In this document: piece by piece, positions 6,451 to 61,886 of the stretch
Layout of the letters: every line of letters begins with the position of its first letter
Position numbering within the stretch: the stretch's first letter is position 1
Assembly (NCBI GenBank): GCA_965261735.1
Contig: OZ253470.1
Span: 4,512,001 to 4,576,000, forward strand
Direction: 5' to 3'
DNA from: Alphaproteobacteria bacterium
GTDB taxonomy: Bacteria; Pseudomonadota; Alphaproteobacteria; SHVV01
DNA: 64,000 nt
Program-made: the position numbers and the translations under genes
The notes under the pieces: model-generated
Told to the model about the DNA's origin: nothing
What the model saw: the letters and a program-made list of their open reading frames with translations, nothing else
Databases searched by the model: none

Positions 6451-6707
6451 GGGCCTACTCCAAGCGACACTGGTATCACAGTAAGGACCGGAGAGCTGAT
6501 CAAGGTTCTGGATGACGGAGTCAACTGCCCAGCTTGCAGAGCTGCGGCTAGCGTGACATCGCCAAAAACAGCGAGCAGGATAGCCGCGACGTACAACTCT
6601 CTCGGGCGCATTGTTCAAGCCTGCGCCAACTCTAGCCGTGCTGCAAGGACGAGAGCACAGCGCCCGACGTCGAGTCTCACGGGCCCGAATATGGGATTCG
6701 ACACGGC

Positions 6708-6840
6708 ACGTCCGGTCAACCTTCAAGTGCTGACTCTCTAATGCCGACTTCCGCTTTCGTGGCGTTTCCTTCCGCTTCACCCACAGATCCAGACGTGCCG
6801 GGCGCCCTCGGTGCGAGGCAGCTGTGACCCAACGCCGACG
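6708..6840 (+). repeat. Copy A of ~180-bp multi-palindrome repeat element (modules 2-5; module 1 degenerate)
   Basis: Aligns by eye with the reverse complement of 35861-35994, about 16 differences in ~135 bp. Confidence 0.85.
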
Positions 6841-6878
6841 TCGGAGAAGGCACAAGACTTAGAGACTTGTGCGGTGGC

Positions 6879-9203
6879 TCATGAGGCCTTGGGACCGACC
6901 ATACGAGGTGGCGAGAAAACGCTAATCGGGGGCGCTTTGCCGTCGTACTTTTCGATTTGCACCAGCGCCGTCAGCGCGCTTGGGCCCTGCGCGAGTTTTG
7001 AAGTCCCCTTGTCTAGGGTGAGAACGTTGGCGTTGCCGTGGCGCTCAAGACTACCCATCGTGCCGGGTTCGACGGGGTCATACCAGGCTCCGTTGGAAAG
7101 TTGGACGACGCCGGGGCGCATGGCCTCCGTCACCACAGCGCCCGCGAGACAGGCGCCTCGATCGTTGAAGACACGCACGATATCACCGTCATTGATGTGG
7201 CGCGGCTTGGCATCGGCGGGGTTGATCCATATCGGCTCCCGCTGCCTGACCTTATGGCTTCGACTTACTGATCCGTCATCCATCTGGCTATGTAGCCGTT
7301 GCGTGGGTTGGCTTGAAAGGATGTGCAGCGGCCACCGCCGGGCAGACTCTCCACCCAGCCATTCCGCGGGTTCCAACCAGGCGGCATGGGGCGGGCAGTC
7401 GTCATATCCGAAAGCTGCAATCGTTTCCGAATAAATCTCTATTTTGCCCGACGGCGTGTTGAGAGGGTGAGCGTCTGGGTCGGCGCGGAAATCTGCCAGC
7501 ATCACGTAATCGTCCTCTGGCTCCGGTATCTCCACATGGCCTCGCTCCCAAAAGGCTTCAAATTCGACGAGTTCCACCTTGTGTTGGGCGGCCCCCTGCC
7601 GCGCCACGTCATAGAGATGCCTGAGCCACTCCATTTCGCCGCGCCCTTCGGTGAAGTCCTGGCGGAAACCCAGCCGTCCGGCGAGGTCGGCGAATATGTC
7701 GTAATCGTTGCGGGCCTGGCCAACGGGCTCGATCGCCTGCTGCATCGCGAAGAAGAAGCGATCGAACGGGGAGGCCCCGATATCGTTGCGCTCGAGGGTC
7801 GTCGTGGTCGGCAGAACGATATCAGCGTGGCGCGCCGTGGACGTCCACCACGGTTCGTGGACAATGATCGTTTTCGGCCGCCGCCATCCCCGCAGGAGCC
7901 GATTGAGATCCTGCTGATGATGGAACGGGTTGCCACCGGCCCAGTAGATGAGCTGGATGTCGGGGAACGTAAGCTTCATCCCGTTGAAATCGATCACCTC
8001 ACCTGGGTTGAGCAACATGTCGGTAATTCGGGCGACCGGGATGAAGCCGTCGATCGGGTTCTTACCGGCCGAAATAAGCCCTGGGACGCTGACGCGCCGG
8101 CGTGGGTTCCCTACTCCGTTCATCGAGCCGTAGCCGAAACCGAAACCGCCGCCCGGAAGACCGATTTGACCCAGCATGCTGGCTAGGACCGTGGTCATCC
8201 AGCAGACCTGCTCCCCGTGATCGGCCCGCTGCAACGACCAAGCAGTCATGATCATCGTGCGGCATCCCGCCATGCGGCGGGCCAGTGTGCGGATCTCGTC
8301 GACCTCGACGTCCGCAACTCCTGCCGCCCAAGCAGCGTCTTTGGGCTGCCCGTCCTTTTCTCCCAGGAGGTAGGACCTGAACCTATCGAAACCGACGCAA
8401 TAGCGGTCGAGGAAGGCCTGATCGTGGAGATTCTCCGTAACCAGCGTGTGGGCAAGCCCCAGCATCAGTGCGACATCCGTGGTGGGCCGTGGACTGATCC
8501 ACTGGGCATCCAGAAAATCCGGGGCATCGTCGTGAATCGGGCTGATATTGACGAACGCGACACCGGCCTCCTTGGCCCGACGCAGCCATTTCTCATAGGA
8601 CCTGTCGCCGGCCCCGCCGAACGTTACGCGCCCGTGCCTAAGGGCTGCGCCCCCGAACATGACCGCGAGCTTCGTGTGTTTGACGATGCTGGGCCAGGAG
8701 GTGAGGGCGCCAGCCACCGACTCGACGCTGCCTACTACGTGCGGCATGATCACCAGGGCGGCGCCGAAGCTGTAGTTCGTCACGTGGTCTGTGAAGCCGC
8801 CAAAGCCGTTGAGGAAACGGTGCAACAGGGTAGGCGCGTGATGCAGCCGGCCGGCGCTTGCCCAGCCAGAGGAACCGCCAAAGATCGCGGCGTTGCCGTG
8901 CTCTCTTTTGATCCGGGTGAGTTCGCGCGTAATGAGGCCGAGCGCTTCATCCCACGAAACATTGACGAAGGGCTCCGCGCCACGGCCCGACCCGCTACCT
9001 TGCGGCCCGCGTTCAAGATATCCGGCGCGCACCGCCGGTTGCTTCACCCGACTTTCGGCGTAGACGGCGCTAGGAACCGCGTCGATGAGCTCGTTCGGGA
9101 CGGGGTCTCCTTCAAAACGCTCGACCGAGACCAATCGGCCGTCCTCTACCTTCGCGGTGTAAGCCCCCCAATGGGCATGAGTGTGTCGAAAAGACGTACC
9201 CAT
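6879..9203 (-). CDS. Molybdopterin oxidoreductase, DMSO/TMAO/biotin-sulfoxide reductase (BisC-like) family, cytoplasmic
   Basis: AHWGAY, FVNVSWDEA, GWASAGRLHHA, NYSFGAA (Ser ligand), WAGGNPFHH, RLHSQ, GAWYDP; no Tat leader. Confidence 0.9.
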   Translation of the reverse strand: MGTSFRHTHAHWGAYTAKVEDGRLVSVERFEGDPVPNELIDAVPSAVYAESRVKQPAVRAGYLERGPQGSGSGRGAEPFVNVSWDEALGLITRELTRIKREHGNAAIFGGSSGWASAGRLHHAPTLLHRFLNGFGGFTDHVTNYSFGAALVIMPHVVGSVESVAGALTSWPSIVKHTKLAVMFGGAALRHGRVTFGGAGDRSYEKWLRRAKEAGVAFVNISPIHDDAPDFLDAQWISPRPTTDVALMLGLAHTLVTENLHDQAFLDRYCVGFDRFRSYLLGEKDGQPKDAAWAAGVADVEVDEIRTLARRMAGCRTMIMTAWSLQRADHGEQVCWMTTVLASMLGQIGLPGGGFGFGYGSMNGVGNPRRRVSVPGLISAGKNPIDGFIPVARITDMLLNPGEVIDFNGMKLTFPDIQLIYWAGGNPFHHQQDLNRLLRGWRRPKTIIVHEPWWTSTARHADIVLPTTTTLERNDIGASPFDRFFFAMQQAIEPVGQARNDYDIFADLAGRLGFRQDFTEGRGEMEWLRHLYDVARQGAAQHKVELVEFEAFWERGHVEIPEPEDDYVMLADFRADPDAHPLNTPSGKIEIYSETIAAFGYDDCPPHAAWLEPAEWLGGESARRWPLHILSSQPTQRLHSQMDDGSVSRSHKVRQREPIWINPADAKPRHINDGDIVRVFNDRGACLAGAVVTEAMRPGVVQLSNGAWYDPVEPGTMGSLERHGNANVLTLDKGTSKLAQGPSALTALVQIEKYDGKAPPISVFSPPRMVGPKAS

Positions 9204-9310
9204 ATCGGCACCTCGGTCTGGCGGTCGCACTAACCCGACACGTCCCAAATAGACCGATCGGCTGCGGGGGACGGCGTTACGCGGCGCGGGCGGCTCGTGT
9301 CTTTGGGACC

Positions 9311-10318
9311 TTAGTAGGCGCCCAGTTCCTTGATGATCGGCTCAATGATAGAGGCGTCGAGTATCTGTTCACGGGAAATGGCTTTCTTGATCACCCCGTA
9401 TTCGAGGTACGTTGCTGCCGTGAAATCGGTGATCTCGATGGGAATGCCGCCATTTACTCCCCAAACCCCATACGCACTGAGCTCACGAACGACCTTCTTG
9501 ATGAGGTCGAGCGAGATGTCGGGCGTGCGTTTGTGCATCGCCGCCGCCGCTTCGTCCGGATGTTCGATCGTGTAACGTGCACCCATGATCGAGCCCTTCA
9601 TGAACTTGCTTAAGGCTTCGCGCTTGGCGGGATCGTCCAAATCCTTCCCCTTGATCACGAGATAGTTGTAGCCCAGCTTGCCGAGTTCCTTGGTTACGGG
9701 CGTGATTAAGTTGATGTGGTCGCCGGCCTTGGTGGCAGTCAGGGTGTTGACCATCGAGTAGTCCACCTTGCCCGCAATCACCGCCGCCAGCCGGTCGGCA
9801 TGCCCGCCGATCGACACGTGTGTGATCTTGGAGTTCAGGCCATGCTTTTTCAAGATCATGGACGCCATGTGGTTGAGCATGCCGGGGCCGCCGGCACCGG
9901 CAAAATTCTTTCCGACCAAATCCTCGAGCTTGGTGTTTTTGCCCGCCGCGATGACCTGATAGTCCTGTCGCGGCTGCCACGAACCGACGGCCTTGACACC
10001 GCTACCGGCGAGGATGCTGAGCATCGTCGTCGACGGGCCGATGGTGGAGATATCGGCTTCGCCTGCAACCAACGCGCGCAGGGCGTTGCCACTACCGATC
10101 ATGCGAAGGATCTCGATCTCGAGGTCCAAATCCTTGAACCAGCCCTTGTCCTCGGCGATGTAGAAGGGAACGCCGTAGGTGGTATCCGCGGTCGGAAAGA
10201 TGACCTTGATCTTGGACTTGCCCGCAGCCGCCGGGCTCACATCGGCGAGCATGCCCGCCGCCGCGAAAACTGCCCCGACGATCAGCGCGCGGCGGGACGT
10301 CCTCAGCAACTTGTTCAT
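9311..10318 (-). CDS. ABC substrate-binding protein, NMT1/TauA/SsuA-like
   Basis: Possible Tat leader (SRRALI), PFYIAEDKGWF, HPDEAA; no cognate permease adjacent. Confidence 0.8.
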   Translation of the reverse strand: MNKLLRTSRRALIVGAVFAAAGMLADVSPAAAGKSKIKVIFPTADTTYGVPFYIAEDKGWFKDLDLEIEILRMIGSGNALRALVAGEADISTIGPSTTMLSILAGSGVKAVGSWQPRQDYQVIAAGKNTKLEDLVGKNFAGAGGPGMLNHMASMILKKHGLNSKITHVSIGGHADRLAAVIAGKVDYSMVNTLTATKAGDHINLITPVTKELGKLGYNYLVIKGKDLDDPAKREALSKFMKGSIMGARYTIEHPDEAAAAMHKRTPDISLDLIKKVVRELSAYGVWGVNGGIPIEITDFTAATYLEYGVIKKAISREQILDASIIEPIIKELGAY

Positions 10319-10754
10319 TAGTAGTCCTCCCAGTCGTTACGTGCCGGCCCGAGGCCGGCGCGCTGTGCGGTGGCCGATCGATGGTCTGCGAGCCGCCGAG
10401 TTTCGGTAGTCACAGCCTCAACAGCGTTGCCAGACGTCGTACTGACGGTAGACCAAAGCTGAGCGTGTTCAACCGCGAACCGCACCTGCTAATTTTAGCA
10501 AAGGCGTTGCCGCGTAACGCTCGATCACGAGCGGGCAGTGCGTCGCGTGTTCTTCCTCAACTATCCGAGGCACACGCGGGACAACAACGCCGAGCGCGGT
10601 TTGACCTTATCATATCCGACATTCTCTATTTGAATCAAATTCGAAAGTCGCGGATACCACCGATCCACATGCGTCCCTAGCGCCGCGTACCGATGCTTCT
10701 CATGGAGCGGGCACCTGCTATGGTTGGCGGACACCGCTCCGTGGAGGTTCCGTT

Positions 10755-11645
10755 ATGTCGTTCGACGACATGCCCGACCTCGGGCCGATGCTGTTCCCGG
10801 CGGGCGAGGATTATGCGCGGCGCATACTCACCGCCTCGAAGATCATACAGCCGCGCTGCCGGACGATCCTCGACGTTCCCTACGGTGCGGACTATTGGCA
10901 GAAGGTGGACTTTTATTTGCCCGACGATGCCGCACTCACTGGGCTTCCGGTGCTGTGCTTCCTCCACGGCGGCAGTTGGCGGCACGGCTACAAGGAATGG
11001 ATGGGCTTTATGGCGCCGCCGATCCTCGCGCTGCCGGCGATCTTCGTGTCGGTGTCCTATCGCCTGGCGCCGAGCACGAAATTTCCCGCCATTTTGGAGG
11101 ACTGTATCGACGCGCTAGCGCTGGTTCACCGCGCGGCCACCGAATACGGCGGCGATCCCGACCGCGTGTTCTATGGCGGCCATTCGGCCGGCGGCCATCT
11201 CGCTGCCCTCGTGGCGTTGAGCCGCGACCGGTTGCGGGCGCGCGGTTTGCCCGACGACGCGATAAAGGGCTGTCTACCCGTCAGCGGCATCTTCGACCTG
11301 CGGATGCAGAGCGCCGTTCCCGGCGGCGTTACCGAGCTCGTTCACCCGCTCGTGTTTGCGGACCCCGAGGACAGCGAGTCATACAGCCCCGTCACCTGCG
11401 CCGATGGTAACTCCACCCCGTTCTTCGTAGCTTACGGCGAGGCGGACCTGCCGGAGGTAGTCAGCACCTCACGCGCGTTTATCGCCTGTCTCGATCACGC
11501 GCCATGCGTGATCGAACACCACATGTGGCCCGGCTCAAACCACTACGAGACAAGTGAAGACCTCGCCGACCCAGACAATGCGTGGGTGCGCAAACTCGGT
11601 GCGTGGATGATGGCGCCGCCGCGCCGGGGTGACGCCCACCCGTAA
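10755..11645 (+). CDS. Alpha/beta hydrolase (arylformamidase/HSL-like)
   Basis: HGGSW, YRLAP, GHSAGG nucleophile motif. Confidence 0.85.
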   Translation: MSFDDMPDLGPMLFPAGEDYARRILTASKIIQPRCRTILDVPYGADYWQKVDFYLPDDAALTGLPVLCFLHGGSWRHGYKEWMGFMAPPILALPAIFVSVSYRLAPSTKFPAILEDCIDALALVHRAATEYGGDPDRVFYGGHSAGGHLAALVALSRDRLRARGLPDDAIKGCLPVSGIFDLRMQSAVPGGVTELVHPLVFADPEDSESYSPVTCADGNSTPFFVAYGEADLPEVVSTSRAFIACLDHAPCVIEHHMWPGSNHYETSEDLADPDNAWVRKLGAWMMAPPRRGDAHP

Positions 11646-11808
11646 CGCGTGCGTTCAGTAACCGCGCCCCAGGCATCTCTCGCGCGGGCCCTCTCCGCAA
11701 AAGAGGCGGGCGAACCAACCGTGGCGAAACGCGTGTGGCATGTCCTCGTGAGCGGCTTGGGACGCCAACGTTGCGCCGCCACCCACCGCAATAGAACGAG
11801 CGGTGCGC

Positions 11809-12204
11809 CTAAGGAACGTGGGCCTTGGCTTCGATCTCGATCAGCATGTCGGGGTGCAATAGCTCACCCTGGTAGCCGCTTTCGATGAATCCGCGCTTGG
11901 GAAGGTATTCGCGCACCATCGCATCGACGACGCCGAAGTCTTCGCGCCGCTTGATGAAAAAGCGGATGTCGAAGATGTCGTCGAGCGAGCAGCCCGCGGC
12001 TTTGCACACTTTGCTAATGTTCTCGAAGGTGAGGCGGGTCTGCTCCTCGATGGTCGGCGCAAGCTTGCGCTCCGCCATGGAGCCGGAAACGTTGGTCAGC
12101 GCAGAGGTTCCAGAAATATGGAGGGTGTTTCCAATCTTTACCGCGCGGTCGAAATGGCCGACTGGCTCGGCCAGGGTTGTCGGATTGATGACGATCTTCT
12201 CCAT
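11809..12204 (-). CDS. RidA/YjgF family protein
   Basis: LHISGT, EEQTRLTFENI, LLHPDMLIEIEAKA. Confidence 0.85.
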   Translation of the reverse strand: MEKIVINPTTLAEPVGHFDRAVKIGNTLHISGTSALTNVSGSMAERKLAPTIEEQTRLTFENISKVCKAAGCSLDDIFDIRFFIKRREDFGVVDAMVREYLPKRGFIESGYQGELLHPDMLIEIEAKAHVP

Positions 12205-12289
12205 CGGATGTCCTCCTCTCGTAAAGCATCGACACTATACAAGCGTGCCGCCGCACGAACCCAATCGGCAACGACAGGTCTCACCCAAC

Positions 12290-13444
12290 CTAGTGGATTG
12301 ATCGGAACGAAAGAGTCCGATTTGAGATTCCGTATTGTGCGGTGTCATGCGAGTCTGTGCTATGCGCACCGGCATCCATTTTACTGTCACGTCTGGCGAC
12401 CGTCAGCGATTGCAAGCTATCGTCGCGGACCCGAAGAGCTCGCAGAAACATGTCTGGCGGGCGCGGATCATCCTGAAGAGCGACGAGGGGCTCGGGAACT
12501 CGTCGATCATGGCCGAGACCGGCAAGTCCAAGACCTGTGTCTGGCGCTGGCAGGAGCGGTTCATGCACGAGGGTGTCAACGGCTTGCTTCGCGATAGGTC
12601 CCGTCCGCCTGGCAAAGCGCCGATCCCGCCGGAGCGCGTCGCCGAGATCGTCCGCCTGACCCAGCAAGCGCCGCCGCACGAGGCGACCCACTGGACGCTG
12701 CGCGCGATGGCGAAGGTTGCTGGCGTCGCGGCGTCGACGGTCCAAGCGATCTGGAAGGCCCATGGCCTCAGCCCGCACCGCTGGCGGCACTTCAAGCTCT
12801 CCAATGATCCCGCCTTCGCCGAGAAGCTCACAGATATCGTCGGCTTGTATGTCGATCCGCCGGCCCATGCCGTGGTGCTGTCGGTTGATGAGAAATCACA
12901 GATCCAGGCGCTCGACCGCACCCAACCCGGCTTGCCGATGAAGAAGGGCCGCGCCGGTACGATGACCTATGATTACAAACGGCATGGCACGACGACGCTG
13001 TTCGCCGCGCTCAACGTGCTGGACGGTACGGTCATCGCACAGAACATGCAGCGCCACCGCCATCAGGAGTTCATCCGCTTCCTCAACCGCATCGAGCGCG
13101 AGGTGCCGACGGACAAGGCCGTCCACGTCATCCTCGACAACTACGCCGCGCACAAGAAGGACAAGGTCCGCGCCTGGCTCGCCCGCCATCCACGCTGGAC
13201 CTTCCACTTCACGCCAACCTCGTGCTCGTGGCTCAATGCCGTCGAGGGCTTCTTCGCCAAACTAACGCGGCGCAGGCTCAAATACGGCGTCTTCCAATCC
13301 GTCGTCGACCTTCAGGACGCCATCAACCGATTTGTCCGCGAATACAATGACGCAAACCCAAAACCCTTCATCTGGAAAGCCGACCCCGATCATATCATCG
13401 CCGCACGAAACAGAGGGTTCCAAACGTTGGAATCAATCCACTAG
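12290..13444 (+). mobile_element. IS630-family insertion sequence
   Basis: Inverted ends CTAGTGGATTGAT / ATCAATCCACTAG, inserted at a (C)TA(G) site. Confidence 0.92.
12362..13444 (+). CDS. IS630 transposase
   Basis: VDEKSQIQAL, YKRHGTTTLFAAL, ILDNYAAHK, TPTSCSWLNAVE. Confidence 0.95.
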   Translation: MRTGIHFTVTSGDRQRLQAIVADPKSSQKHVWRARIILKSDEGLGNSSIMAETGKSKTCVWRWQERFMHEGVNGLLRDRSRPPGKAPIPPERVAEIVRLTQQAPPHEATHWTLRAMAKVAGVAASTVQAIWKAHGLSPHRWRHFKLSNDPAFAEKLTDIVGLYVDPPAHAVVLSVDEKSQIQALDRTQPGLPMKKGRAGTMTYDYKRHGTTTLFAALNVLDGTVIAQNMQRHRHQEFIRFLNRIEREVPTDKAVHVILDNYAAHKKDKVRAWLARHPRWTFHFTPTSCSWLNAVEGFFAKLTRRRLKYGVFQSVVDLQDAINRFVREYNDANPKPFIWKADPDHIIAARNRGFQTLESIH

Positions 13445-13772
13445 CACGTTGCCACACGGACCCACTACGACACCCTGGAAGCAACCGACGCGTAAGCATG
13501 GCGCCATTGAAGCACGCTCAGAAGGTGTGGCGTCACACCAAGCAGCACGATCACGTTTGCGGACCCCTTCGAAATCGGCCGCCAATTCGTACGATGAGGG
13601 CGAGCTACTCCAACAGACTCAGCGCACTTCGCCACGTCCGCTAGTGGCTAGGAGGCGAAGTTCGCACCAGGTCGCCTGTACGACCGCTCTACCCCCGAAA
13701 GCCGACTTTCAGCGGCAACGTCCGCGTTGCCCCCGGGTTTCGTCTGCTTCACCTGAGAGAGCAGGCCGTCCT

Positions 13773-15206
13773 GGTCGTGTCCCAGGACGTGGTGTAGGAG
13801 TTGTTGGAGCCTCTGTTAGCTGTGGGTAGGCGGCTTGCCGTAGCGACCGCCGAGAGTCTGGCGTAGGCAAGCCGGCTATCCACAGCGGAGGCCATCGCGG
13901 TTCCGGTTTAGGGTTGGGCTAGTGCAAACCAACCTGACCCGAAGGAGAACCACGATGACCCAGGACATGATGACCCTGCGCGCGCTTTTGGAGAAGAGCT
14001 CCGATGCCGATCTGCTTTGCGAGATGATCGGCTTCACGGCCGAGTGGCTGATGGCACTGGAGGTTGAGGGCCTGACCGGCGCCGGGCACGGCGAGCGCTC
14101 GGCGGATCGTATCACCCATCGCAACGGCTACCGCGACCGGTCCTGGGAGACGCGGGCCGGCACGGTCGAGCTGAAGATCCCGAAGCTGAGGAAGGGAAGC
14201 TACTTCCCGGGCTTCCTGGAGCCGCGGCGGATGGCCGAGAAGGCGCTGGCTGCGGTGATCCAGGAGGCCTACATCCAGGGGGTGTCGACCCGCTCGGTCG
14301 ACGATCTGGTTCAGGCGATGGGGATGTCGGGCGCCTCCAAGAGCCAGGTCTCCAGGCTGTGCGGCGAGATCGACGATAAGGTCACCGGCTTCCTCGATCG
14401 ACCGCTGGAGGGCGACTGGCCCTATCTGTGGCTCGACGCCACCTACGTGAAGGTGCGCCAGACCGGACGCATCGTCTCGGTCGCGGTGACCGTGGCTGTG
14501 GCCGTCAACGACCAAGGCCGCCGCGAGGTCCTGGGCGTGGCGATCGGCGCGTCGGAGGCCGAGACCTTCTGGACCGAGTTCCTGCGCTCGCTGGCCCGGC
14601 GCGGGCTGCGCGGCGTGAAGCTGGTGATCTCCGACGACCACAAGGGCCTGAAGGCCGCCGCGACCCGGATCCTCGGCGCCACATGGCAGCGCTGCCGCGT
14701 GCACTTCGCCCGCAACCTGCTGGCCCATGCCGGCCGCCAGGGCCGGCGCGTCGTCTCCGCCTTCGCCCAGGAGGACGCCGACAGCGCGAAGGTCCAGTGG
14801 CGCCAGGTCGCCGACCAGCTCAGGCCCAAGGTGCCCAAGCTGGCAGTTCTCATGGACGAAGCCGAGCACGACGTCCTCGCCTACATGAGCTTCCCCAGGG
14901 AGCACCGCCAGAAATTGCACTCCACAAACCCGATCGAACGGCTCCATGCCGAGGTCAAGCGTCGCACCAACGTCGTCGGTATCTTTCCCAACGAAGCCGC
15001 CATCACACGGCTCGTCGGCGCCATCCTTCTCGAGCAGAACGACGAGTGGGCCGTCTCAAGGAGATACATGACGCTGGAATCCATCGCTCCGCTGAGCGAT
15101 GGTGTCCCCATCACGCTGCCCACCGTGGCAGCCTGAACGTCCCGGCCCTACCCGCCGGGAGCCGCGTAGAGCGCAACGCTCTTACACCACTCCGCGGGAC
15201 ACGATC
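13773..15206 (+). mobile_element. IS256-family element, copy 1, with 8-bp target duplication GCCGTCCT
   Basis: Ends GGTCGTGTCCC / GGGACACGATC; GCCGTCCT at 13765-13772 and 15207-15214. Confidence 0.95.
13955..15136 (+). CDS. IS256 transposase (variant with 5-aa deletion)
   Basis: [36 protein letters not shown]. Confidence 0.93.
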
Positions 15207-15421
15207 GCCGTCCTGTCGATCCAGCCGTTCGTCTGGTCCTGACCCAGAGCTGACGTCGACGAATCCGGCCTCGGCGAGGACCGCCGTGTCAAGCAAGGAG
15301 CGCCGGCACCGAGCAACGGTTAAGACCGCACCAACGTCGATGCTCGGGCGCTATGATTGCACCGGCCGGTCGGCTATGATTGGGCCAACAAGAGCCGCTA
15401 GAAAAACCGGCGAGGGAGGGG

Positions 15422-28991: not shown

Positions 28992-29930
28992 CTAGTTCAC
29001 GCGGAACTCCTCGGGCAGGAAGAACAAGGAATCCTGATCCTCGGCCACGGCGGCGTGGCATTCGACACAAAACTCGACGTTGGCCGAGCCCTGCCCCTTG
29101 GTGACACCGAAGACAGTGCCGTCGGGGTTGACCATGGTGTACGCCCAGTCGAACGAGTCGGCGTTGAACCCGGCGTTGCGCTTTTCCATGACGAACAGCG
29201 GGCCGGCCGCTGTGGTGCCGTTGGGATTGACCACGAAACTGTCCTTGGCCAGCACCGAACCGGCCGGCATCCGGCCCCCGTCTTCGAACTTCTTGTAGTT
29301 CGCTGCGGCGACCGGGTTCGCGTAATTGTTGACGTAGCGGCTGCCGTGCGTGGCCGACTGGTACGGCGACGAGGCGACAAGGGCCCAGAACCAATAGTTG
29401 GCGACCGGCTCGAGCCCGGCCCTGTGATAGCCGCTGATCATCTCGTCGATCAGGCAACCATAGGCCTTGTTCGCCTCGGCAGCCGTGACCTCGGCCCCGG
29501 CCGACGCGCCGCACGGACTGCAAGGATTGCATGCCTTGGCTGCCGCGCAGGGGTTGCGGGGGTTCTTGGCCGCGCACGGGTTGCACGCACTGGCAGCGGC
29601 GCACGGGTTCTTGGCCGCGCACGGATTACACGCGCCGAGCGCCGCCGCTTGCAGGCGCGGGATCATGCACCTCGACGCCGTCGCTCCAGCGCCACAGGGA
29701 CTACACGGATTGCACGGGTTCTTCTTTGCCGCACACGGGTTGCACGCCGCGGCCAGCCGGATGACGCCCGGCTTGGGCTTTGCGGCAGGCAGGGCACCGG
29801 AGAACTGTTGGGCGAGCCCGGAAGCGTATCCGGGCGCAACGACCACGATAGCGCCGCCAGCTGCTATGCCGGCACCGACCAGGGCTGGAATAACGGTGGT
29901 GGAAAGGAGCTTGGACTTGGGCAGTTTCAC
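28992..29930 (-). CDS. Cytochrome P460-family c-type cytochrome with N-terminal Cys-rich NPC repeats
   Basis: GGAGG RBS + GTG 29930, signal-like N-terminus, (AC)NPCAAK repeats, MPAGSVLAKDSF, LFVMEK, C-terminal CVECH heme motif. Confidence 0.8.
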   Translation of the reverse strand: MKLPKSKLLSTTVIPALVGAGIAAGGAIVVVAPGYASGLAQQFSGALPAAKPKPGVIRLAAACNPCAAKKNPCNPCSPCGAGATASRCMIPRLQAAALGACNPCAAKNPCAAASACNPCAAKNPRNPCAAAKACNPCSPCGASAGAEVTAAEANKAYGCLIDEMISGYHRAGLEPVANYWFWALVASSPYQSATHGSRYVNNYANPVAAANYKKFEDGGRMPAGSVLAKDSFVVNPNGTTAAGPLFVMEKRNAGFNADSFDWAYTMVNPDGTVFGVTKGQGSANVEFCVECHAAVAEDQDSLFFLPEEFRVN

Positions 29931-30083
29931 GGTATCGCCTCCTGCTGGTTCAGGTAGCGGATGGATCATGCGGACCGGGCTTGGGCGCCGCTTCATCCTC
30001 GCAGTGTGCGCCGCTTCGCCAAGGTTGGCTAGGCGGTTGCTCCGGGAGTTCGAACGGCATGACGCGAACCGTGCGGAGCCCAA

Positions 30084-30176
30084 CGTCCGCTATGGGTCAC
30101 CAGCAGACCTCCGGCCACATTGCTGTGTAGTTCCGCTTACGGCCCAGAAGCGGGCATGATCGCCCGGAAAGCGGAC
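30084..30176 (-). repeat. Half copy C of the multi-palindrome element (modules 5, 4, 3)
   Basis: CGTCCGCTATGGGTCACCAGCAGAC-22 bp-TTCCGCTTACGGCCCAGAAGCGGGC-11 bp-GAAAGCGGAC; spacer lengths equal those of copy E. Confidence 0.7.
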
Positions 30177-30182
30177 ATCACG

Positions 30183-31355
30183 TCACCGATGTTGAGTTAG
30201 CGCCCCGATACCGAAGTCCCTCGACTCGCCGAATCCCTGGGCACTACCTACGGCGCTCTTACGTTTGTCGCGCATGATGCGCCTGAACCGCTCGGCCGCG
30301 CCCGAGGTTTTCGGCAACGGCGGCATGAGTACTGCTTTCTTCGGCGATGGCACCTCAGCCAATTGCGCTCGGCGCACGCACTTGAACGATATCAGGCGCT
30401 GCGCACTTTCGTCCCAGAGCGCGAGACGGAGGCAGGAAAGGCTGTCACGAAGACCGATGCGGTTGAGGGTTTGGAGCGCGGGGATATCGGACAGACAGGC
30501 CCGGAGACGATAGTCGGGAATGCGGCAAGACAGGTGATGGATATGGTGGATGCCGATGTCGCCGGAAAACCAGCGTAGCGATTGCGGCAGGTCGTAGAAA
30601 CTGCTGGCCATCGCCGAGGCTTCATGAAGGTCCCAGCTGTCTTCCTTACGCCAGTAAGTGTATTCGAACTGGTGCTGGATATAGAACAACCAGACGCCAG
30701 CGATGCCGGAAAGAAGGACGATGGGGGCCAGGACCATCAGCACCTCGAGAATTCCGACGCTCAAGCCGAGGCCCGTCAGTACCCCTGCAATGCACAGGTT
30801 GGTGCCCAATACGCTGATCAACACCGTGGGATGGCGATGGATCATGTCCACGGGAAGGCGGTATTTGATGACGAATAGGTAGATCGGCCCAATCCCCAGC
30901 ATCACGGCGGGGTTGCGGTAAGTGCGGTAGGCGAGACGTTTCCAACCTGACAAGGCGGTGTATTCGGCCACGGTGAGGAGCCTAACGTCGCCGATTCCCC
31001 GTTTCTGCAGATTGCCACTGGTGGCGTGATGGATGTTGTGGGCCCGGCGCCAGTAGTCGTACGGGATCAGGGTGATGATCCCGATCAGGGTGCCCAACAC
31101 GTCGTTAAGACGGGGGAAATGAAAGAACGAGCGGTGGCCGCAATCGTGCTGGATGATGAAGATGCGCACCAGGAAGCCGGCGGCCAGCGGCGCGAGCGCA
31201 AGCGCCATCCAGTAGGACACGTCGATGACAACGTGTATCGTCGCGCAGGTGGCTAAGAAACCGCCGAGCGAGGTCGTGAGCTGGGACAGGCTCTCGCGCA
31301 GTATGGGTGCCTGAAAGTGCGCCACCTCGCGGCGGAGGCTCGTTTGCCCGGTCAT
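30183..31355 (-). CDS. Fatty acid desaturase (Des-like); C-terminal tail possibly extended
   Basis: His boxes QHDCGH, HNIHH, HHIHH; WLFYIQHQFE; LWDE. Confidence 0.88.
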   Translation of the reverse strand: MTGQTSLRREVAHFQAPILRESLSQLTTSLGGFLATCATIHVVIDVSYWMALALAPLAAGFLVRIFIIQHDCGHRSFFHFPRLNDVLGTLIGIITLIPYDYWRRAHNIHHATSGNLQKRGIGDVRLLTVAEYTALSGWKRLAYRTYRNPAVMLGIGPIYLFVIKYRLPVDMIHRHPTVLISVLGTNLCIAGVLTGLGLSVGILEVLMVLAPIVLLSGIAGVWLFYIQHQFEYTYWRKEDSWDLHEASAMASSFYDLPQSLRWFSGDIGIHHIHHLSCRIPDYRLRACLSDIPALQTLNRIGLRDSLSCLRLALWDESAQRLISFKCVRRAQLAEVPSPKKAVLMPPLPKTSGAAERFRRIMRDKRKSAVGSAQGFGESRDFGIGALTQHR

Positions 31356-31459
31356 GGGCACCCTCTCAAGTGCACAGACTCAGTCGAATGGTGCACCAGG
31401 ATACCTTGCGTACCAAGGCGTTGAGACCTGATCGGATGAATCGTCCGTCTGCATCACGT

Positions 31460-31615
31460 TCAAGTTTGTCGCACGGTAATCAGGCCGCAGCGCCGGCATT
31501 GGATCTCCTCGACGCTGCCTCTGGTGCCAAATCCGAAGGTCACTTTGACAATCCGAAAGTCATGAAAACCCAGCGGACAGAGGAGCCACCCAAGAAGCGT
31601 TTGAATGTTGCTCAC
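31460..31615 (-). CDS. Small Cys/His protein (LCPLGFHDF...CRRCG)
   Basis: GGAG RBS before GTG 31615; C-x4-H and CxxC pattern. Confidence 0.5.
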   Translation of the reverse strand: MSNIQTLLGWLLCPLGFHDFRIVKVTFGFGTRGSVEEIQCRRCGLITVRQT

Positions 31616-31658
31616 GATCTCCGCTAGCAAGGGCGTCGACCCGCTCGTAAGTGGGCGG

Positions 31659-31856
31659 TCAACTCCACTTGGAGCCATTCCTGGCTACGACCTCTTGGCA
31701 GCGTTTGCATAAACGATTGCCCATGTGCGAACTCCAGAATTTCCTATGGCCGCGGCATATTGGCCCCAGGCAAGGACGGAGTTTGAGGTCTTCAACCACG
31801 GCGGGTTTTGAGCGTTCGGACCCAGTGGCGCCTTTCAAGAGTCGCGCGTCCGCCAC
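31659..31856 (-). CDS. Small zinc-finger-like protein
   Basis: GAGGAGG RBS; RPCLGPIC...FWSSHMGNRLCKRC. Confidence 0.5.
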   Translation of the reverse strand: MADARLLKGATGSERSKPAVVEDLKLRPCLGPICRGHRKFWSSHMGNRLCKRCQEVVARNGSKWS

Positions 31857-32017
31857 TAACACCCTCCTCGGTAGATTCTGTTTTTTTACCGGCCGCGGTT
31901 GCACTAGCACACTAAGGCAAAACCGGTGCTACGGGGAGTTCTTCAGCGGGCCCTATGTCGAGTCTACTGAAGTTCTTGGGCGGAGCCGCGGTCTTTCTTT
32001 TTCATCAGGGGGTGCGG

Positions 32018-32197
32018 CTGGTCCGCCAAGCTGCTCATCGACCGGTACGGCGAGGATGCGCCGATCCACGCCGCCATGCTGGCGGACGAGCTGCTGGAGA
32101 AGGGCGATCTAGATGGCCGCACCGTCTGGCTCAGAGTGCTAAGGGCGATCAAGAGCTGCAGCGGATAGAGCCGAAGAGCGATGCCGAAGTGCACTGA
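32018..32197 (+). pseudogene. Remnant of a small conserved alphaproteobacterial hypothetical gene
   Basis: Manual translation WSAKLLIDRYGEDAPIHAAMLADELLEKGDLDGRTVWLRVLRAI, then frameshift into ELQRIEP; no start codon seen. Confidence 0.45.
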
Positions 32198-32306
32198 GGG
32201 CTTGCTGGCGGATCGTCTTAGCCGCGAGTAGATTTCGGGGTCGGGCTGACCCTAGACCCACCCGACCTGGCGTGCAGAGCACAAATCAACCGCCGGAGGC
32301 AACACG

Positions 32307-32675
32307 ATGACCGATACACCGAACCCGACCGAGGTCGTCGAGGCTTATGTCAAGGCAGTGCGCGCGAGCGACCTCAAGGGCCTGCGCGCCGTGTTAGCGG
32401 ACGATGCCGAACTGCTCGGCGTGCCGACGGAGGGGATGGAGAGCGGCCACCTAAAAGGCGCCGACGCCATCGTTGCCTTTTACGACAAGCTGCTCGAAGA
32501 CCGTGGCGGCGCCGATCCCCATCCTGGCCCCCTAATGGTGGTCGGCGATCACGTCGCTGTCGAAATCGACGCGCATCACCGCGACTATATTGCGGAGGTC
32601 TCCGATTTTTTCACGATCAAAAACGGCAAGATCATCCGCCTCGTGGTCTACGGCCGCCGCAAACGCCCGAAATAG
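32307..32675 (+). CDS. SnoaL/NTF2-like protein
   Basis: VVEAYVKAV..D, LADDA, GADAIVAFY, FTIKNGKI; GGAGG RBS. Confidence 0.8.
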   Translation: MTDTPNPTEVVEAYVKAVRASDLKGLRAVLADDAELLGVPTEGMESGHLKGADAIVAFYDKLLEDRGGADPHPGPLMVVGDHVAVEIDAHHRDYIAEVSDFFTIKNGKIIRLVVYGRRKRPK

Positions 32676-32818
32676 GACGACCCAGAACATCTCGCCTTGC
32701 CGTCAGCCCGCCCTTCCACTCGGCGTACACTTTCGCCTCGGCGATTCACCCTCGCGCGAGCTTGGAGGCGTACAACATCATCGAAGACGTGGGCAACTGC
32801 GCTGAGGTCCAAACAGAG

Positions 32819-33695
32819 ATGCCGATCATAGCTGACCCGTGCGACCTCACACTCAAGGGTCGGGTTTGCCTGGTCACCGGGGCGACCAATGGGATTGGGC
32901 GGGCGACGGCCACGGCGCTGGCGTCCAAAGGGGCGAGCCTGCTCGTGCACGGGCGCGACCGGCACAAGGCCGAAGCGACGGTGCGCGACATCGTTGAGGC
33001 CACGGGCAACCACGCCGTCGAGCCGATCGTCGCCGATTTCTCCGAACTCGACCAAGTGCGCGGCATGGCCGCCGAGTTCCGCGCCCACCACAAGTGCTTG
33101 CACCTACTGCTCAACAACGCGGGGCTTCTCGCGTTCGACCGCCGCACGACGGCTTCGAGGCCCATTTCGGCGTCAACCACCTGGCGCCGTTCCTGTTGAC
33201 GAACCTTCTGCTCGATACGCTCAAGAGCAGCGCGCCGGCGCGTATCGTCACGGTGGCCTCGGCCGTTCACAACCGCGGCCGCATCGACTTCAACGATCTG
33301 CAAGCCGGGCCGCGATATAGCGGTGTCGGCGCCTACGCAACCTCGAAGCTCGCCAACATCCTGTTCACGACCGAGCTCGCGCGCCGGCTGGACGGCACCG
33401 GCGTCACCGCCAACGTTCTGCATCCCGGGGGGGGGGGGGGGTGGCGACCGGCCTCGGCGGCGACGGCACCGGACTCATGGCGCTAGGCTGGCGATTCGCC
33501 AAGTATTTCATGATCAACCCCGAGAAGGGCGCACGCACCTCGATCTACCTTGCCGAATCGTCCGACGTCGAGGGCATCAGCGGGCGATACTTCCACAACT
33601 GCCGCGACGCCCCGACCGCCGCGGCGGCCCGGAACGCGTACACCGAAGCGCGGCTGTGGAAGGTGAGCGCGGGTCTCGCCGGACTAGAAGGTTGA
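32819..33695 (+). pseudogene. Retinol dehydrogenase-like SDR, frameshifted twice
   Basis: TGATNGIG and NNAG in one frame; FGVNHL and YATSK in a second; ATGL...RLWKVS in a third; breaks at ~33145 and at the G15 run 33427-33441. Confidence 0.85.
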
Positions 33696-33699
33696 GCCG

Positions 33700-33786
33700 C
33701 GTTGCCGCTTGAGGGTCGGCTCTCGGAGGTAGAGCGGTCGTACCGGCGACTTGGTCCGAACTTCGCCTCCTAGCCAAATGCGGACG
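33700..33786 (-). repeat. Half copy D of the multi-palindrome element (post-module-3 spacer, modules 2, 1)
   Basis: GTTGCCGCT..GTCGGCTCTCGGAGGTAGAGCGGTC..CTTCGCCTCCTAGCCAAATGCGGAC closely matches the reverse complement of 13635-13719. Confidence 0.85.
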
Positions 33787-33971
33787 TTAGGCGCACTCAT
33801 TTCGAGCTGCCGCCCCGCTCGGCATGAGCTGATCGGGACGAGCAGGCCCACCGCGACGCGCGCCATCAAGACGCTCTGGTGAACGAATCCGATGGTCGGT
33901 GAAAAATCAGGTACTGTCGGAGTCGATTTGACGGTTATCTGGGAAATGTCAGGCGAAAAGGACTCGAACAG

Positions 33972-34289
33972 GTGAAGATAATTCAGGAGTGGAGGCCGCG
34001 CATAATCTTCCTGGTGATTGGCTTGGTGGTGGGGCCATTCATCTCCAGCTGGATCGGCTGGCAAGTCACTACCAGGACGATGGAGAGTGCAATCAGCGAT
34101 GCGGTCGTTTCCTATCGAGCAGGGCTCTGCGCGGAGCGGGCTCGATCGGATCCGGAGGCGACATCCGACGTGCTCAACAATTTCGGTGATCGGCGCAAAC
34201 TTGCCGAGCAGTGGGCGGTCCTGCCCGGTGAGGAGGAAGCCGACAATGACGTGGTCAACGAGTGCAACTCGCTGCTCGCAAAAACATAG
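33972..34289 (+). CDS. Hypothetical membrane-anchored protein
   Basis: N-terminal TM segment, two Cys (LCAERA, ECNSLL). Confidence 0.6.
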   Translation: MKIIQEWRPRIIFLVIGLVVGPFISSWIGWQVTTRTMESAISDAVVSYRAGLCAERARSDPEATSDVLNNFGDRRKLAEQWAVLPGEEEADNDVVNECNSLLAKT

Positions 34290-34385
34290 TCCTGACGGTG
34301 GAGGCTCCTTACTCGCCATTTTCGAGCGGTGGCTTCGACAGGGCTTGCGCCCGGTTGAACTAGGCTAGTTATCGACTGTCAGTCG

Positions 34386-35818
34386 GATCGTGTCCCGCGG
34401 AGTGGTGTAAGAGCGTTGCGCTCTACGCGGCTCCCGGCGGGTAGGGCCGGGACGTTCAGGCTGCCACGGTGGGCAGCGTGATGGGGACACCATCGCTCAG
34501 CGGAGCGATGGATTCCAGCGTCATGTATCTCCTTGAGACGGCCCACTCGTCGTTCTGCTCGAGAAGGATGGCGCCGACGAGCCGTGTGATGGCGGCTTCG
34601 TTGGGAAAGATACCGACGACGTTGGTGCGACGCTTGACCTCGGCATGGAGCCGTTCGATCGGGTTTGTGGAGTGCAATTTCTGGCGGTGCTCCCTGGGGA
34701 AGCTCATGTAGGCGAGGACGTCGTGCTCGGCTTCGTCCATGAGAACTGCCAGCTTGGGCACCTTGGGCCTGAGCTGGTCGGCGACCTGGCGCCACTGGAC
34801 CTTCGCGCTGTCGGCGTCCTCCTGGGCGAAGGCGGAGACGACGCGCCGGCCCTGGCGGCCGGCATGGGCCAGCAGGTTGCGGGCGAAGTGCACGCGGCAG
34901 CGCTGCCATGTGGCGCCGAGGATCCGGGTCGCGGCGGCCTTCAGGCCCTTGTGGTCGTCGGAGATCACCAGCTTCACGCCGCGCAGCCCGCGCCGGGCCA
35001 GCGAGCGCAGGAACTCGGTCCAGAAGGTCTCGGCCTCCGACGCGCCGATCGCCACGCCCAGGACCTCGCGGCGGCCTTGGTCGTTGACGGCCACAGCCAC
35101 GGTCACCGCGACCGAGACGATGCGTCCGGTCTGGCGCACCTTCACGTAGGTGGCGTCGAGCCACAGATAGGGTCAGTCGCCCTCCAGCGGTCGATCGAGG
35201 AAGCCGGTGACCTTATCGTCGATCTCGCCGCACAGCCTGGAGACCTGGCTCTTGGAGGCGCCCGACATCCCCATCGCCTGAACCAGATCGTCGACCGAGC
35301 GGGTCGACACCCCCTGGATGTAGGCCTCCTGGATCACCGCAGCCAGCGCCTTCTCGGCCATCCGCCGCGGCTCCAGGAAGCCGGGAAGTAGCTTCCCTTC
35401 CTCAGCTTCGGGATCTTCAGCTCGACCGTGCCGGCCCGCGTCTCCCAGGACCGGTCGCGGTAGCCGTTGCGATGGGTGATACGATCCGCCGAGCGCTCGC
35501 CGTGCCCGGCGCCGGTCAGGCCCTCAACCTCCAGTGCCATCAGCCACTCGGCCGTGAAGCCGATCATCTCGCAAAGCAGATCGGCATCGGAGCTCTTCTC
35601 CAAAAGCGCGCGCAGGGTCATCATGTCCTGGGTCATCGTGGTTCTCCTTCGGGTCAGGTTGGTTTGCACTAGCCCAACCCTAAACCGGAACCGCGATGGC
35701 CTCCGCTGTGGATAGCCGGCTTGCCTACGCCAGACTCTCGGCGGTCGCTACGGCAAGCCGCCTACCCACAGCTAACAGAGGCTCCAACAACTCCTACACC
35801 ACGTCCTGGGACACGACC
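34386..35818 (-). mobile_element. IS256 copy 3, full length but inactivated; flanked by a 21-bp direct repeat
   Basis: Both ends present; 1-bp deletion near 35381 and TGG->TGA at 35173; CTAGTTATCGACTGTCAGTCG at 34365-34385 and 35819-35839. Confidence 0.92.
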
Positions 35819-35860
35819 CTAGTTATCGACTGTCAGTCGCCCCCATCGGTGCCAGCCGGA

Positions 35861-36040
35861 CGTCCGCTTTGGGTCACGAGCTGCCTTACACCGAGGGCGC
35901 CTGCCACGTCTGGATCTTTGGGTGAAGCGGACGGAAACGCCGCGAAAGCAGAAGTCGGCGTTAGAGAGTCAGCAGTTGAGGGTGGACCGGACGTACCGGC
36001 GACCTGTCCGAACTTCGCCTCCTAGCCAGAAGCGGACATT
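35861..36040 (-). repeat. Copy E of ~180-bp multi-palindrome element (complete, uninterrupted)
   Basis: On + strand: GTCCGCTTTGGGTCACGAGCTGCC / GTCTGGATCTTTGGGTGAAGCGGAC / GAAAGCAGAA / GTCAGCAGTTGAGGGTGGACCGGAC / CTTCGCCTCCTAGCCAGAAGCGGAC. Confidence 0.88.
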
Positions 36041-46663: not shown

Positions 46664-46739
46664 CTCAAACCGTTCACGAATGTTTGCACCGATTCCAGGG
46701 CCCTGCCCCTTGCGGTCGCGGCGGGTTGGGTTAGATTAA

Positions 46740-46911
46740 GGGGCTTACATACTTAGCTTGACGGGCAGGTTCGCCGGCTGCCGTGGCCCCCGTCTTAGCT
46801 GCAATGCGGTCGCCGAAGAGTGGTTTTTCCGGTCTTGGGCTGTTGTGTTACGTTCGTACCGACTGACGCGAGCGCGGGATTGCCGCCTGTCAAGTTAAGT
46901 ATGTAAGCCCC
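46740..46911. mobile_element. 172-bp MITE with 27-bp terminal inverted repeats and 8-bp target duplication
   Basis: GGGGCTTACATACTTAGCTTGACGGGC / GCCTGTCAAGTTAAGTATGTAAGCCCC (25/27); TAGATTAA at 46732-46739 and 46912-46919; no ORF. Confidence 0.85.
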
Positions 46912-47009
46912 TAGATTAAGGCCCCCCAGCGAGGACCGTTGCGCCGATCGTTGCAACACTAATCGGGCCCGAATTCTCTCTCCGGTTACTGACCAATTGA
47001 TTTACAGGT

Positions 47010-59535: not shown

Positions 59536-60489
59536 ATGGTGGTGCAGGAAGTGAGAGCCGGCGCGGCTCCGGCCTATTTCAGGCCCCGGCGCCTGGGGCA
59601 TGCCAATCTGTGGGTCGACGACCTCAAGAAGTCCCAAGCCTTCTACAACAGAGTGTGCGGCTTCACGGTCGAGTTTTGGGAACCCGATCTGGTCGCGACC
59701 TTTCTTGGCACGGGCAACACGCCGCACGATATCGGCATGATCGAGACCACCGGCGGCAAGGCCCGCTACGGTCGCGACGGCCTATTGCAGATTCCCGAGG
59801 GCGTTGGGGTGAGCCGTGGGCTCGGCCATTTGGCGTGGGAGCTCGACAACGAGGCCGACCTCGTCGAGGCCTACAAGAGGGCCGAAGCGGACGGGATCGA
59901 GACTGACATGACGGTCGACCACCAGGTAGCCCACAGCGTCTACATGTTCGACCCCGACATGAACTACATCGAGTTCTACTGCGATACGGTGCGCGAGTGG
60001 CGCACGGTGATCCAGGGCGAGATGGCGCTCATCACCGGGCAGTGGACGCCCGGCGAAACCGAGCCTTTCACGGAGTCACGCTGCGAGACGGACCCCGAAC
60101 TCCGGGTCGTCGATGAGGCCCTTATCCACCCGCGGCGGATCACCCACACCGTACTCCTGACCGACGATGTCGAGCGGCTCGCGGCCTTCTACAGCAATGT
60201 CCACGCCGGCTATCGATACCACTTGGCGATCAGCAAGACGGGCGCCGGTGCGAGCGCGGGATACCACCACGCCGCCTTCGAGCTCGCCGAAGAGGTGGCG
60301 GTCGAGGCCGCGGAGCGGAGGTGCCGCGACGCCGGTATCGAGGTCGAGAAGACCATCGATCATCCCTCGAAGCGGAGCTTTTTTGTGATCGATCCGGACG
60401 GCCTGCGGAGCGAATACTACGTCCGCCGCAGCGACGCGTTCTCCGATCTCACCGAGGCGGCACCGGAGTTGCGCGCGTTTCTGGTCTAG
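59536..60489 (+). CDS. Two-domain VOC protein (extradiol dioxygenase-like)
   Basis: RRLGHANLWV, HDIG, GLGHLAWE, SVYMFDPDMNYIEFY; second domain looks shortened. Confidence 0.8.
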   Translation: MVVQEVRAGAAPAYFRPRRLGHANLWVDDLKKSQAFYNRVCGFTVEFWEPDLVATFLGTGNTPHDIGMIETTGGKARYGRDGLLQIPEGVGVSRGLGHLAWELDNEADLVEAYKRAEADGIETDMTVDHQVAHSVYMFDPDMNYIEFYCDTVREWRTVIQGEMALITGQWTPGETEPFTESRCETDPELRVVDEALIHPRRITHTVLLTDDVERLAAFYSNVHAGYRYHLAISKTGAGASAGYHHAAFELAEEVAVEAAERRCRDAGIEVEKTIDHPSKRSFFVIDPDGLRSEYYVRRSDAFSDLTEAAPELRAFLV

Positions 60490-61862: not shown

Positions 61863-61886
61863 CTAGTCCATGTAAGAGGAGCCGGG

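Follow-up and report, generated by a model that had tools for sequence, protein, structure and literature searches.

A composite palindromic element from an alphaproteobacterium probably belongs to an apparently undescribed, integron- and pdif-like cassette system

REP, BIME and REPIN repeats are marked by a conserved hairpin with compensatory changes, a RAYT (Y1) transposase and a preference for gene 3′ ends, and integrase-less clusters of attC sites are arrays that persist without their enzyme. In integrons, the attC sites at the cassette joints carry a GTTRRRY core (PMC8876359). The pdif (dif) modules of Acinetobacter plasmids are recombined by XerC/XerD (PMC6449649), and dif has conserved inner ATAA and TTAT motifs in its XerC and XerD arms (PMC2731167). 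The tyrosine recombinases fall into simple and complex groups, and a core-binding domain is present in both (PMC8138268). In E. coli, there are defence islands with only an integrase or no mobility gene, and how these islands are mobilised is unclear (PMC10121019).

We analysed a stretch of 64,000 nucleotides (the window) from the genome of an alphaproteobacterium, a single contig of 5.03 Mb that is 98%-complete, in which five copies of an intergenic element of regularly spaced palindromes had been predicted from the letters alone. The element apparently belongs to a recombinase-site cassette system. A literature search, with most subscription papers outside its reach, found no description of these sites or of the recombinase family that we associate with them, and neither is accounted for in the available portions of PMC8138268, PMC9519451, PMC3414803, PMC2731167 and PMC10121019. 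We assign a probability of about 0.65 to the reading that the composite element is a joint at which gene blocks are exchanged between genomes, likely the double-stranded site of a tyrosine recombinase of about 200 residues. That its cores are cassette joints, whatever the enzyme, we hold with high confidence.

Each copy is assembled from units in which a spacer separates an 11-bp arm from its inverted counterpart (Table 1). The terminal cores have 6-bp spacers, GGGTCA in A and TAGCCA in E, each with a CA end on the same strand, and the internal sites have 7-bp spacers. In the copy at 35860-36039 the sites are separated by gaps of 18 bp (A-B), 10 bp (B-C), 10 bp (C-D) and 17 bp (D-E), with the centres of A, B, D and E spaced 46.5, 60 and 46.5 bp apart; this parse bears out the four palindromes around one half-site of the original prediction. 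All five copies are present where they had been placed, and the insertion sequence thought to interrupt the second is indeed there, an IS256-family element with its target duplication. They are not, however, five copies of one uniform element: copy 1 is without E, copy 4 consists of D and E, and copy 3 has only the core in common with the others, copies 3 and 4 being separate subtypes. The body of copy 3 also occurs at four further genome loci with unrelated left flanks, and one of the five bodies of this subtype is joined to a TAGCCA core instead of GGGTCA. Within the core arms the outer GTCYGCT is kept and the inner bases vary. The motif as first written, GTCNGC-N12-14-GCNGAC, has one match in the window versus 0-2 in 20 shuffles and is therefore not above chance; what makes the element significant is its similarity over the whole length (E 2e-45 for copy 1) and the result of an arm matrix.

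Table 1. Sites, element copies, insertion sequences and cargo in the window, in window coordinates.
Feature	Position	Strand	Remarks
Full composite element: core A, accessory B, half-site C, accessory D, core E	35860..36039	+	A to E 152 bp
Core site A, 11-6-11	35860..35887	+	arms 35860-70 and 35877-87; spacer GGGTCA 35871-35876
Accessory site B, 11-7-11	35906..35934	+	46.5 bp centre to centre from A
Half-site C, single arm	35945..35955	+	
Accessory site D, 11-7-11	35966..35994	+	
Core site E, 11-6-11	36012..36039	+	arms 36012-22 and 36029-39; spacer TAGCCA 36023-36028
Copy 1: A, B, C, D, without core E	6704..6841	-	core A spacer 6825-6830
Copy 2, E-side part	13634..13772	-	core E spacer 13645-13650
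Copy 2, A-side part	15207..15256	-	core A spacer 15240-15245
IS256-family element splitting copy 2	13773..15206	+	8-bp target duplication
Copy 3, different subtype: core A, 7-bp-spacer site (30129-30157), half-site	30083..30212	+	core A spacer 30094-30099
Copy 4: only accessory D (33713-33741) and core E	33701..33787	+	core E spacer 33771-33776
One-gene cargo cassette, core E to core A	33777..35876	+	646 bp without the insertion sequence
105-aa ORF of the 646-bp cassette	33972..34289	+	no Pfam match
IS256-family element inside the 33777-35876 cassette	34386..35818	-	absent from four other sequencing runs
Candidate multi-gene cargo, core E to core A	6831..13644	-	RidA-like, esterase, NMT1-type binding protein, molybdopterin oxidoreductase; IS630-type transposase inside

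With the arm matrix, which was built from the window copies themselves, we found 28 sites above 20 bits in the genome, compared with 0, 0 and 0 in three shuffles. The genome search that the original prediction had proposed, made with nhmmer and six window queries, gave 25 loci, and the family is genome-wide; the curated list holds 39 cores in 28 elements. These elements are clustered, 14 of the 27 gaps being shorter than 20 kb versus a random mean of 3.1 and a maximum of 9 in 2000 draws, and local GC near them is not significantly lower (p=0.11). That all copies are intergenic holds for almost all elements genome-wide, with 35/39 cores outside ORFs called by a crude picker, but not for the four cores inside such ORFs. 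As foreseen, no family match lies in the housekeeping part of the window. A search for tRNA and tmRNA genes found none. BLASTN of the element against plasmids and phages gave no match, and a second element subtype gave one of 27 bp, with an E of only 0.6. Two further elements, at genome positions 467521-468624 and 529524-532037, are interrupted by insertion sequences with related ends, which brings the insertion-hit elements to three together with the window copy.

Homology between loci of the genome begins or ends at the cores. Two pairs of left flanks share their sequence up to core A and differ beyond it; the left flank of core A at 35860-35887 is common to genome position 3748726 and its right side is different. 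Flank homology thus stops at terminal cores, in line with the synteny breaks expected at the copies. The segments between cores also recur as units. The 646-bp cassette has a second genome copy from 3748726 to about 3751960, which is 99.5-100% identical, has other neighbours and is split by two other insertions. The right end of the recurring cassette falls exactly at core A, next to which a different element subtype follows at the 3748726 locus; its left end, on weaker evidence, is an 18-base match that begins within the arm of a degenerate site. The A end of the cargo at 6831-13644 is 87% identical over 400 bp to another A-flank just upstream of the window, and further one-gene E-to-A segments lie at genome positions 1767058-1768235, 4007303-4008134 and 4645648-4646356. 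We claim no cassette for the stretch 30100-33770, which has the A-to-E order and lies between two different subtypes. Among the joints listed for four other sequencing runs, from four studies, there is no rearrangement at the window's cores; one read contig joins 30108 to 36022 through 30 other letters and probably derives from another locus or organism.

The direct duplication on either side of the IS256 copy at 34386-35818 measures 21 bp (34365-34385 and 35819-35839), far more than the 8 bp at 13773-15206. The IS630-type element at 12290-13444 has about 40 genome copies that are >99% identical and is a recent expansion. An IS110-type, site-targeting identity for the interrupting elements proved wrong in the window, where IS256 was found.

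Being dispersed, intergenic, palindromic, modular and hit by insertion sequences, the elements are reminiscent of REP, BIME and REPIN repeats. They could accordingly be REP/BIME- or MITE-like self-spreading repeats, where genes are swapped by homologous or illegitimate recombination and the small recombinase described below is a passenger. Their high copy numbers in some genomes, the position of sites near ordinary genes, the mosaic subtypes and a poor co-occurrence of sites with the enzyme agree with such an origin. We nevertheless consider it unlikely. The arms neither covary as a hairpin nor form a stable fold, no Y1 transposase (PF01797) was found in the 98%-complete source genome, and the elements have the geometry of recombinase sites, a strict A/E grammar with 10-bp spacing steps and breakpoints at their cores; moreover, oriented half-sites are found at recombinase genes and not at other ORFs. 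Convergent gene ends are not preferred: 25 of 80 gaps next to sites are convergent, 15 divergent and 40 tandem, versus 34, 31 and 84 of 149 other gaps, all on crude ORF calls. The flanks of the elements are site arms and not target duplications, and on these flanks a MITE identity, which calls for a target-site duplication and a partner transposase with the same ends, was rejected. That the original prediction could assign the element to no named family agrees with these observations and with the lack of an Rfam match.

Because the linkers diverge, BLASTN of the element found weak partial matches in only 2 of 60 relatives, and a degenerate core pattern was needed to follow the family through the Alphaproteobacteria. 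The pattern, which counts symmetric sites twice and gives 0-1 matches per genome in a reversed control, has matches in 32 of 301 genomes of the class: 156 in G094, 161 in G203 and 23 in one genome of the same family. Loci were fetched from five further genomes of the class, G094 contributing most of them; 46 of their 54 core pairs no more than 250 bp apart are ordered A then E, and seven inverted E-E joints occur. The spacing of these 54 pairs is quantised in steps of one helical turn, at 45-47 bp (35 pairs), 55-56 bp (8) and 91-93 bp (6), with 5 at other distances. The longer segments run E to A in 39 of 55 cases and hold one ORF in 38 of 55, and their genes are seen in both orientations, 19 to 7. 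Cargo, which is mostly one gene, begins at a TAGCCA core and extends to the following GGGTCA core; the short linkers have the reverse order, GGGTCA to TAGCCA. Of 75 alignments of paralogous cargo, made without a control, 11 end at a core in both copies. None of the alphaproteobacterial cassettes yielded an empty allele.

In viral contigs, core sites bound small alphaproteobacterial elements. Such elements (L011, L014, L022, L024 and L034) carry a large serine recombinase, DUF2924, DUF5681, a terminase-like protein and a methylase, and the one of L024 has inverted core-plus-accessory pairs at both ends. In G094 and G102 many cassettes (L218, L227, L274, L275 and L281) carry paralogues of one family of TPR-containing membrane proteins, suggesting that cassette arrays drive the expansion of this family.

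The same sites with other spacers are found in E. coli islands and enterobacterial prophages, where the cores are GTGCCA and a TCGCTC site lies 42 bp upstream. In viral contigs of enterobacterial prophages they bound a variable stretch located upstream of a dinI-like gene, and the two-site unit of these prophages is matched in 664 of 5426 E. coli genomes. Here an empty allele does exist: in L041 the left flank of L040:6938 is joined to the right flank of L040:12051, and L040 and L042 hold different inserts at that position. In prophages with common flanks, the sequences separate at the core and converge again at the site pair. Among 47 left-flank clusters of GTGCCA-type cores, nine have more than one right flank, and one prophage flank is joined to six. 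Of 22 enterobacterial cargo proteins picked by hand, 14 had matches to PADLOC models, Dsr1, PD-T7-1, HEC-08 and a defence reverse transcriptase among them, and much of the enterobacterial cargo is anti-phage defence.

Near the sites in five of six E. coli regions is a 'site-specific integrase' of about 200 aa (WP_001305361.1 and close relatives), one of them a fragment. Its gene lies between the TCGCTC half-site and the GTGCCA core, which is the position of the short linker, and the core at its 3′ end is joined to nine different right flanks. Flanks thus switch at the core, with the recombinase gene in the linker position and between the same half-sites. Members of this family occur in 406 plasmid records and at least 573 GTDB loci. 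The catalytic R, K, H, R, H and Y are invariant in 12 sequences, and the fold matches the catalytic domains of XerH, XerA and Cre; the model covers about 190 of the 270-350 residues of the Xer and Cre matches and has no core-binding domain. The family scores below every NCBIfam cut-off. FimB/FimE-type invertases (NF007370 and NF007371) resemble it in having about 200 aa and the catalytic domain only, but it reaches 18-26 bits against their cut-offs of about 221, and it is bracketed by its own sites in cassette arrays, not placed at a promoter switch. Most recombinase stop codons in L117-L196 are followed by a GC-rich inverted repeat, which varies by lineage, often ends at the core and may be a terminator or a binding site.

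The best 80 of the at least 573 GTDB loci were analysed with a half-site matrix trained on the source genome only. Of the recombinase genes, 21 of 77 have an inward-pointing half-site upstream, compared with 49 of 830 for the remaining ORFs in these loci (p 3e-8), and 24 of 78 have one downstream, compared with 36 of 881 (p 8e-13); in the opposite orientation there are 8 and 2. For the window's own class of recombinase, the upstream half-site is present in 10 of 18 versus 0 of 15, mostly with the window's spacers GGGTCA and TGGCTA. Overall, fewer than half of the genes show a half-site (34/75), and with a stricter cut-off none of 10 genes of the own class has one downstream. The other tyrosine recombinases of the source genome have a downstream half-site in 0 of 30 cases. 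With the full two-arm matrix there are 41 sites at recombinase genes versus 3-9 in shuffles, spread out without a sharp peak, because the inner arms at these genes are divergent; it was the half-site matrix that gave the signal.

The source genome has no intact recombinase of this kind, and no recombinase gene at all was seen among 60 ORFs scanned in the window. What it has is a remnant of 25 aa, 80% identical, a few bases past a GGGTCA half-site beside a core; G094 similarly has no intact member and a fragment adjoining a GGGTCA site. A direct search found no member in G023, G151, G056 and G002, which have many sites. By genome, the enzyme was found in 2 of 14 site-rich genomes (≥3 strict sites) versus 13 of 287 others, which is not significant (p=0.15) in a search that scored 10 candidates per genome in mostly fragmented genomes. 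From the enzyme's survival as a 25-codon remnant it follows that the sites of the source genome would be orphaned and decaying, or would be served in trans by incoming elements, as in integrase-less attC clusters.

True recombination sites might also be acted on by the host's XerC/XerD or by another tyrosine recombinase in trans. The 11-6-11 size of the cores is that of dif and pdif (PMC6449649), with which the system further shares two spacer classes, accessory genes between the 28-bp sites and arrays in accessory regions, and tyrosine recombinase matches are few in two site-rich genomes, 5 in G023 and 3 in G102. A FimB/FimE-like recombinase of 193-200 aa is encoded in two site-bearing loci (L016:1685-2287 and L262:2210-2791). 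We regard the action of another enzyme as quite improbable, given that the arms are symmetric and the inner ATAA/TTAT of dif is present in 0 of 92 cores, that the candidate dif site of the source genome is unlike the cores, and that half-sites bracket only the 200-aa family. The system also differs from pdif modules in that its cores come in pairs accompanied by phased accessory sites, that the sites flank a dedicated small recombinase, and that the family extends across alpha-, beta- and gammaproteobacteria. The candidate chromosomal dif site is at genome position 4873762.

Like GInt and Gamma-Mobile-Trio (GMT) islands, the system has tyrosine-recombinase-linked islands with variable defence cargo and inverted repeats at insertion sites (PMC5385486, bioRxiv 10.1101/2023.03.28.534373). 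GInt and GMT islands need an operon of three or four genes and have one att pair per island, whereas the sites described here are found repeatedly among the cargo genes and the candidate enzyme is one small protein, for which a comparison with GmtY gave no match. GMT/GInt, pipolin and Tn6022 XerC-like systems were set aside as candidates, as no matching site or enzyme appears in the available portions of bioRxiv 10.1101/2023.03.28.534373, PMC5385486, bioRxiv 10.1101/2024.05.22.595293 and PMC11014353.

The system also resembles integrons (PMC8876359): cassettes mostly of one gene, in tandem, are exchanged at sites with composite four-arm joints, arrays persist without the enzyme, and the cargo includes defence and metabolic genes. 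A cassette system that recombines folded single strands in the manner of attC, with two cores pairing into one hairpin, is an alternative to consider. Four arms with two non-complementary spacers do resemble the attC layout, a long hairpin is the fold predicted for the top strand in 26 of 37 cases and for the bottom strand in 27 of 37, the A/T-rich linkers are T-skewed, and pairing between the two end arms of one cassette is slightly stronger than with shuffled partners (p=0.049, one of nine tests). However, there is no compensatory pairing of the arms in four pairings (p 0.11-0.79; outer arms 0.37, inner arms 0.11), which by itself proves nothing, and no strand bias in folding, and the spacing proceeds in 10-bp steps. 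The GTTRRRY heptamer or its complement occurs in 1 of 92 cores, which agrees with the earlier remark that attC ends are lacking, and IntI (TIGR02249) is above its cut-off in none of five site-bearing genomes, with the small enzyme at 15.9 bits versus 265. Unlike in integrons, genes lie in both orientations, some joints are inverted, the enzyme of about 200 aa is encoded inside a joint and no attI/Pc platform was found. We therefore judge single-strand recombination very unlikely. A structured non-coding RNA or terminator, which the intergenic and palindromic nature of the element could suggest, seems hardly credible: Rfam has 0 matches in the window at the gathering score and 0 in six loci at E up to 0.5, and the copy at 35860-36039 folds no better than shuffles on both strands (z -1.25 and -1.35). 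That the arms do not covary as base pairs fits a DNA site better than an RNA structure.

From the 10-bp spacing steps and the A/T-rich linkers, we infer a double-stranded, phased protein-DNA complex. On that reading the cores would be crossover sites, the internal sites accessory binding sites and the window copies orphaned joints of an array in decay. The broader idea of the original prediction, a multi-subsite recombination or protein-binding site with conserved spacing, is supported by the flank breaks at cores, the helical-turn spacing and the non-covarying arms. Its two analogies were not: the 11-6-11 geometry is that of a tyrosine recombinase and not of a serine-resolvase res site as in Tn3, and the elements are joints of cassette arrays, not isolated phage att arms. 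The enzyme of about 200 aa is predicted to recognise the 11-bp arms, its missing core-binding domain counting against the model. We propose that the recombinase would bind the 11-bp arms, carry out strand exchange over the 6-bp spacer, whose homology need only be loose, and so excise, insert and sometimes invert gene blocks. The 7-bp-spacer sites and the A/T-phased linkers may help to assemble the synapse, and cassettes may travel as circles.

On balance we lean towards a wider view, in which this is a second widespread proteobacterial cassette system besides integrons and pdif. A recombinase consisting of a catalytic domain only, itself a mobile unit of about 700 bp, would use pairs of 28-bp cores in helical phase to shuffle genes. 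In E. coli islands and enterobacterial prophages it would supply hotspots of anti-phage defence, and in Alphaproteobacteria, in which no integrons were found, it would build up arrays that count many dozens of cassettes; the window would be an orphaned array. As a decayed, enzyme-less example, the window has its value as a pointer to the system. The proposed system offers a testable mechanism for the movement of E. coli defence islands that have only an integrase or no mobility gene. The sites provide a sequence handle with which cassettes can be delimited, and hence, as with attC, new defence and metabolic genes can be mined. A 200-aa recombinase with two spacer classes would be interesting both as a compact tool and for the question of how sites are chosen by a catalytic domain on its own.

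Other features of the window were recorded in passing. A cysteine-repeat protein with a cytochrome P460 domain is encoded at 28992-30083, and its number of repeats differs among sequencing runs. All four other runs have seven additional bases at 33142 and lack eight at 33427; the frameshift in the short-chain dehydrogenase region is thus confined to this assembly or strain. A 54-bp AT-rich inverted repeat (74%) at 46713-46938, between folK and an NYN gene, is unrelated to the element family, and an IS5-type element with 29-bp terminal inverted repeats lies at 60482-61870, inside the housekeeping block.
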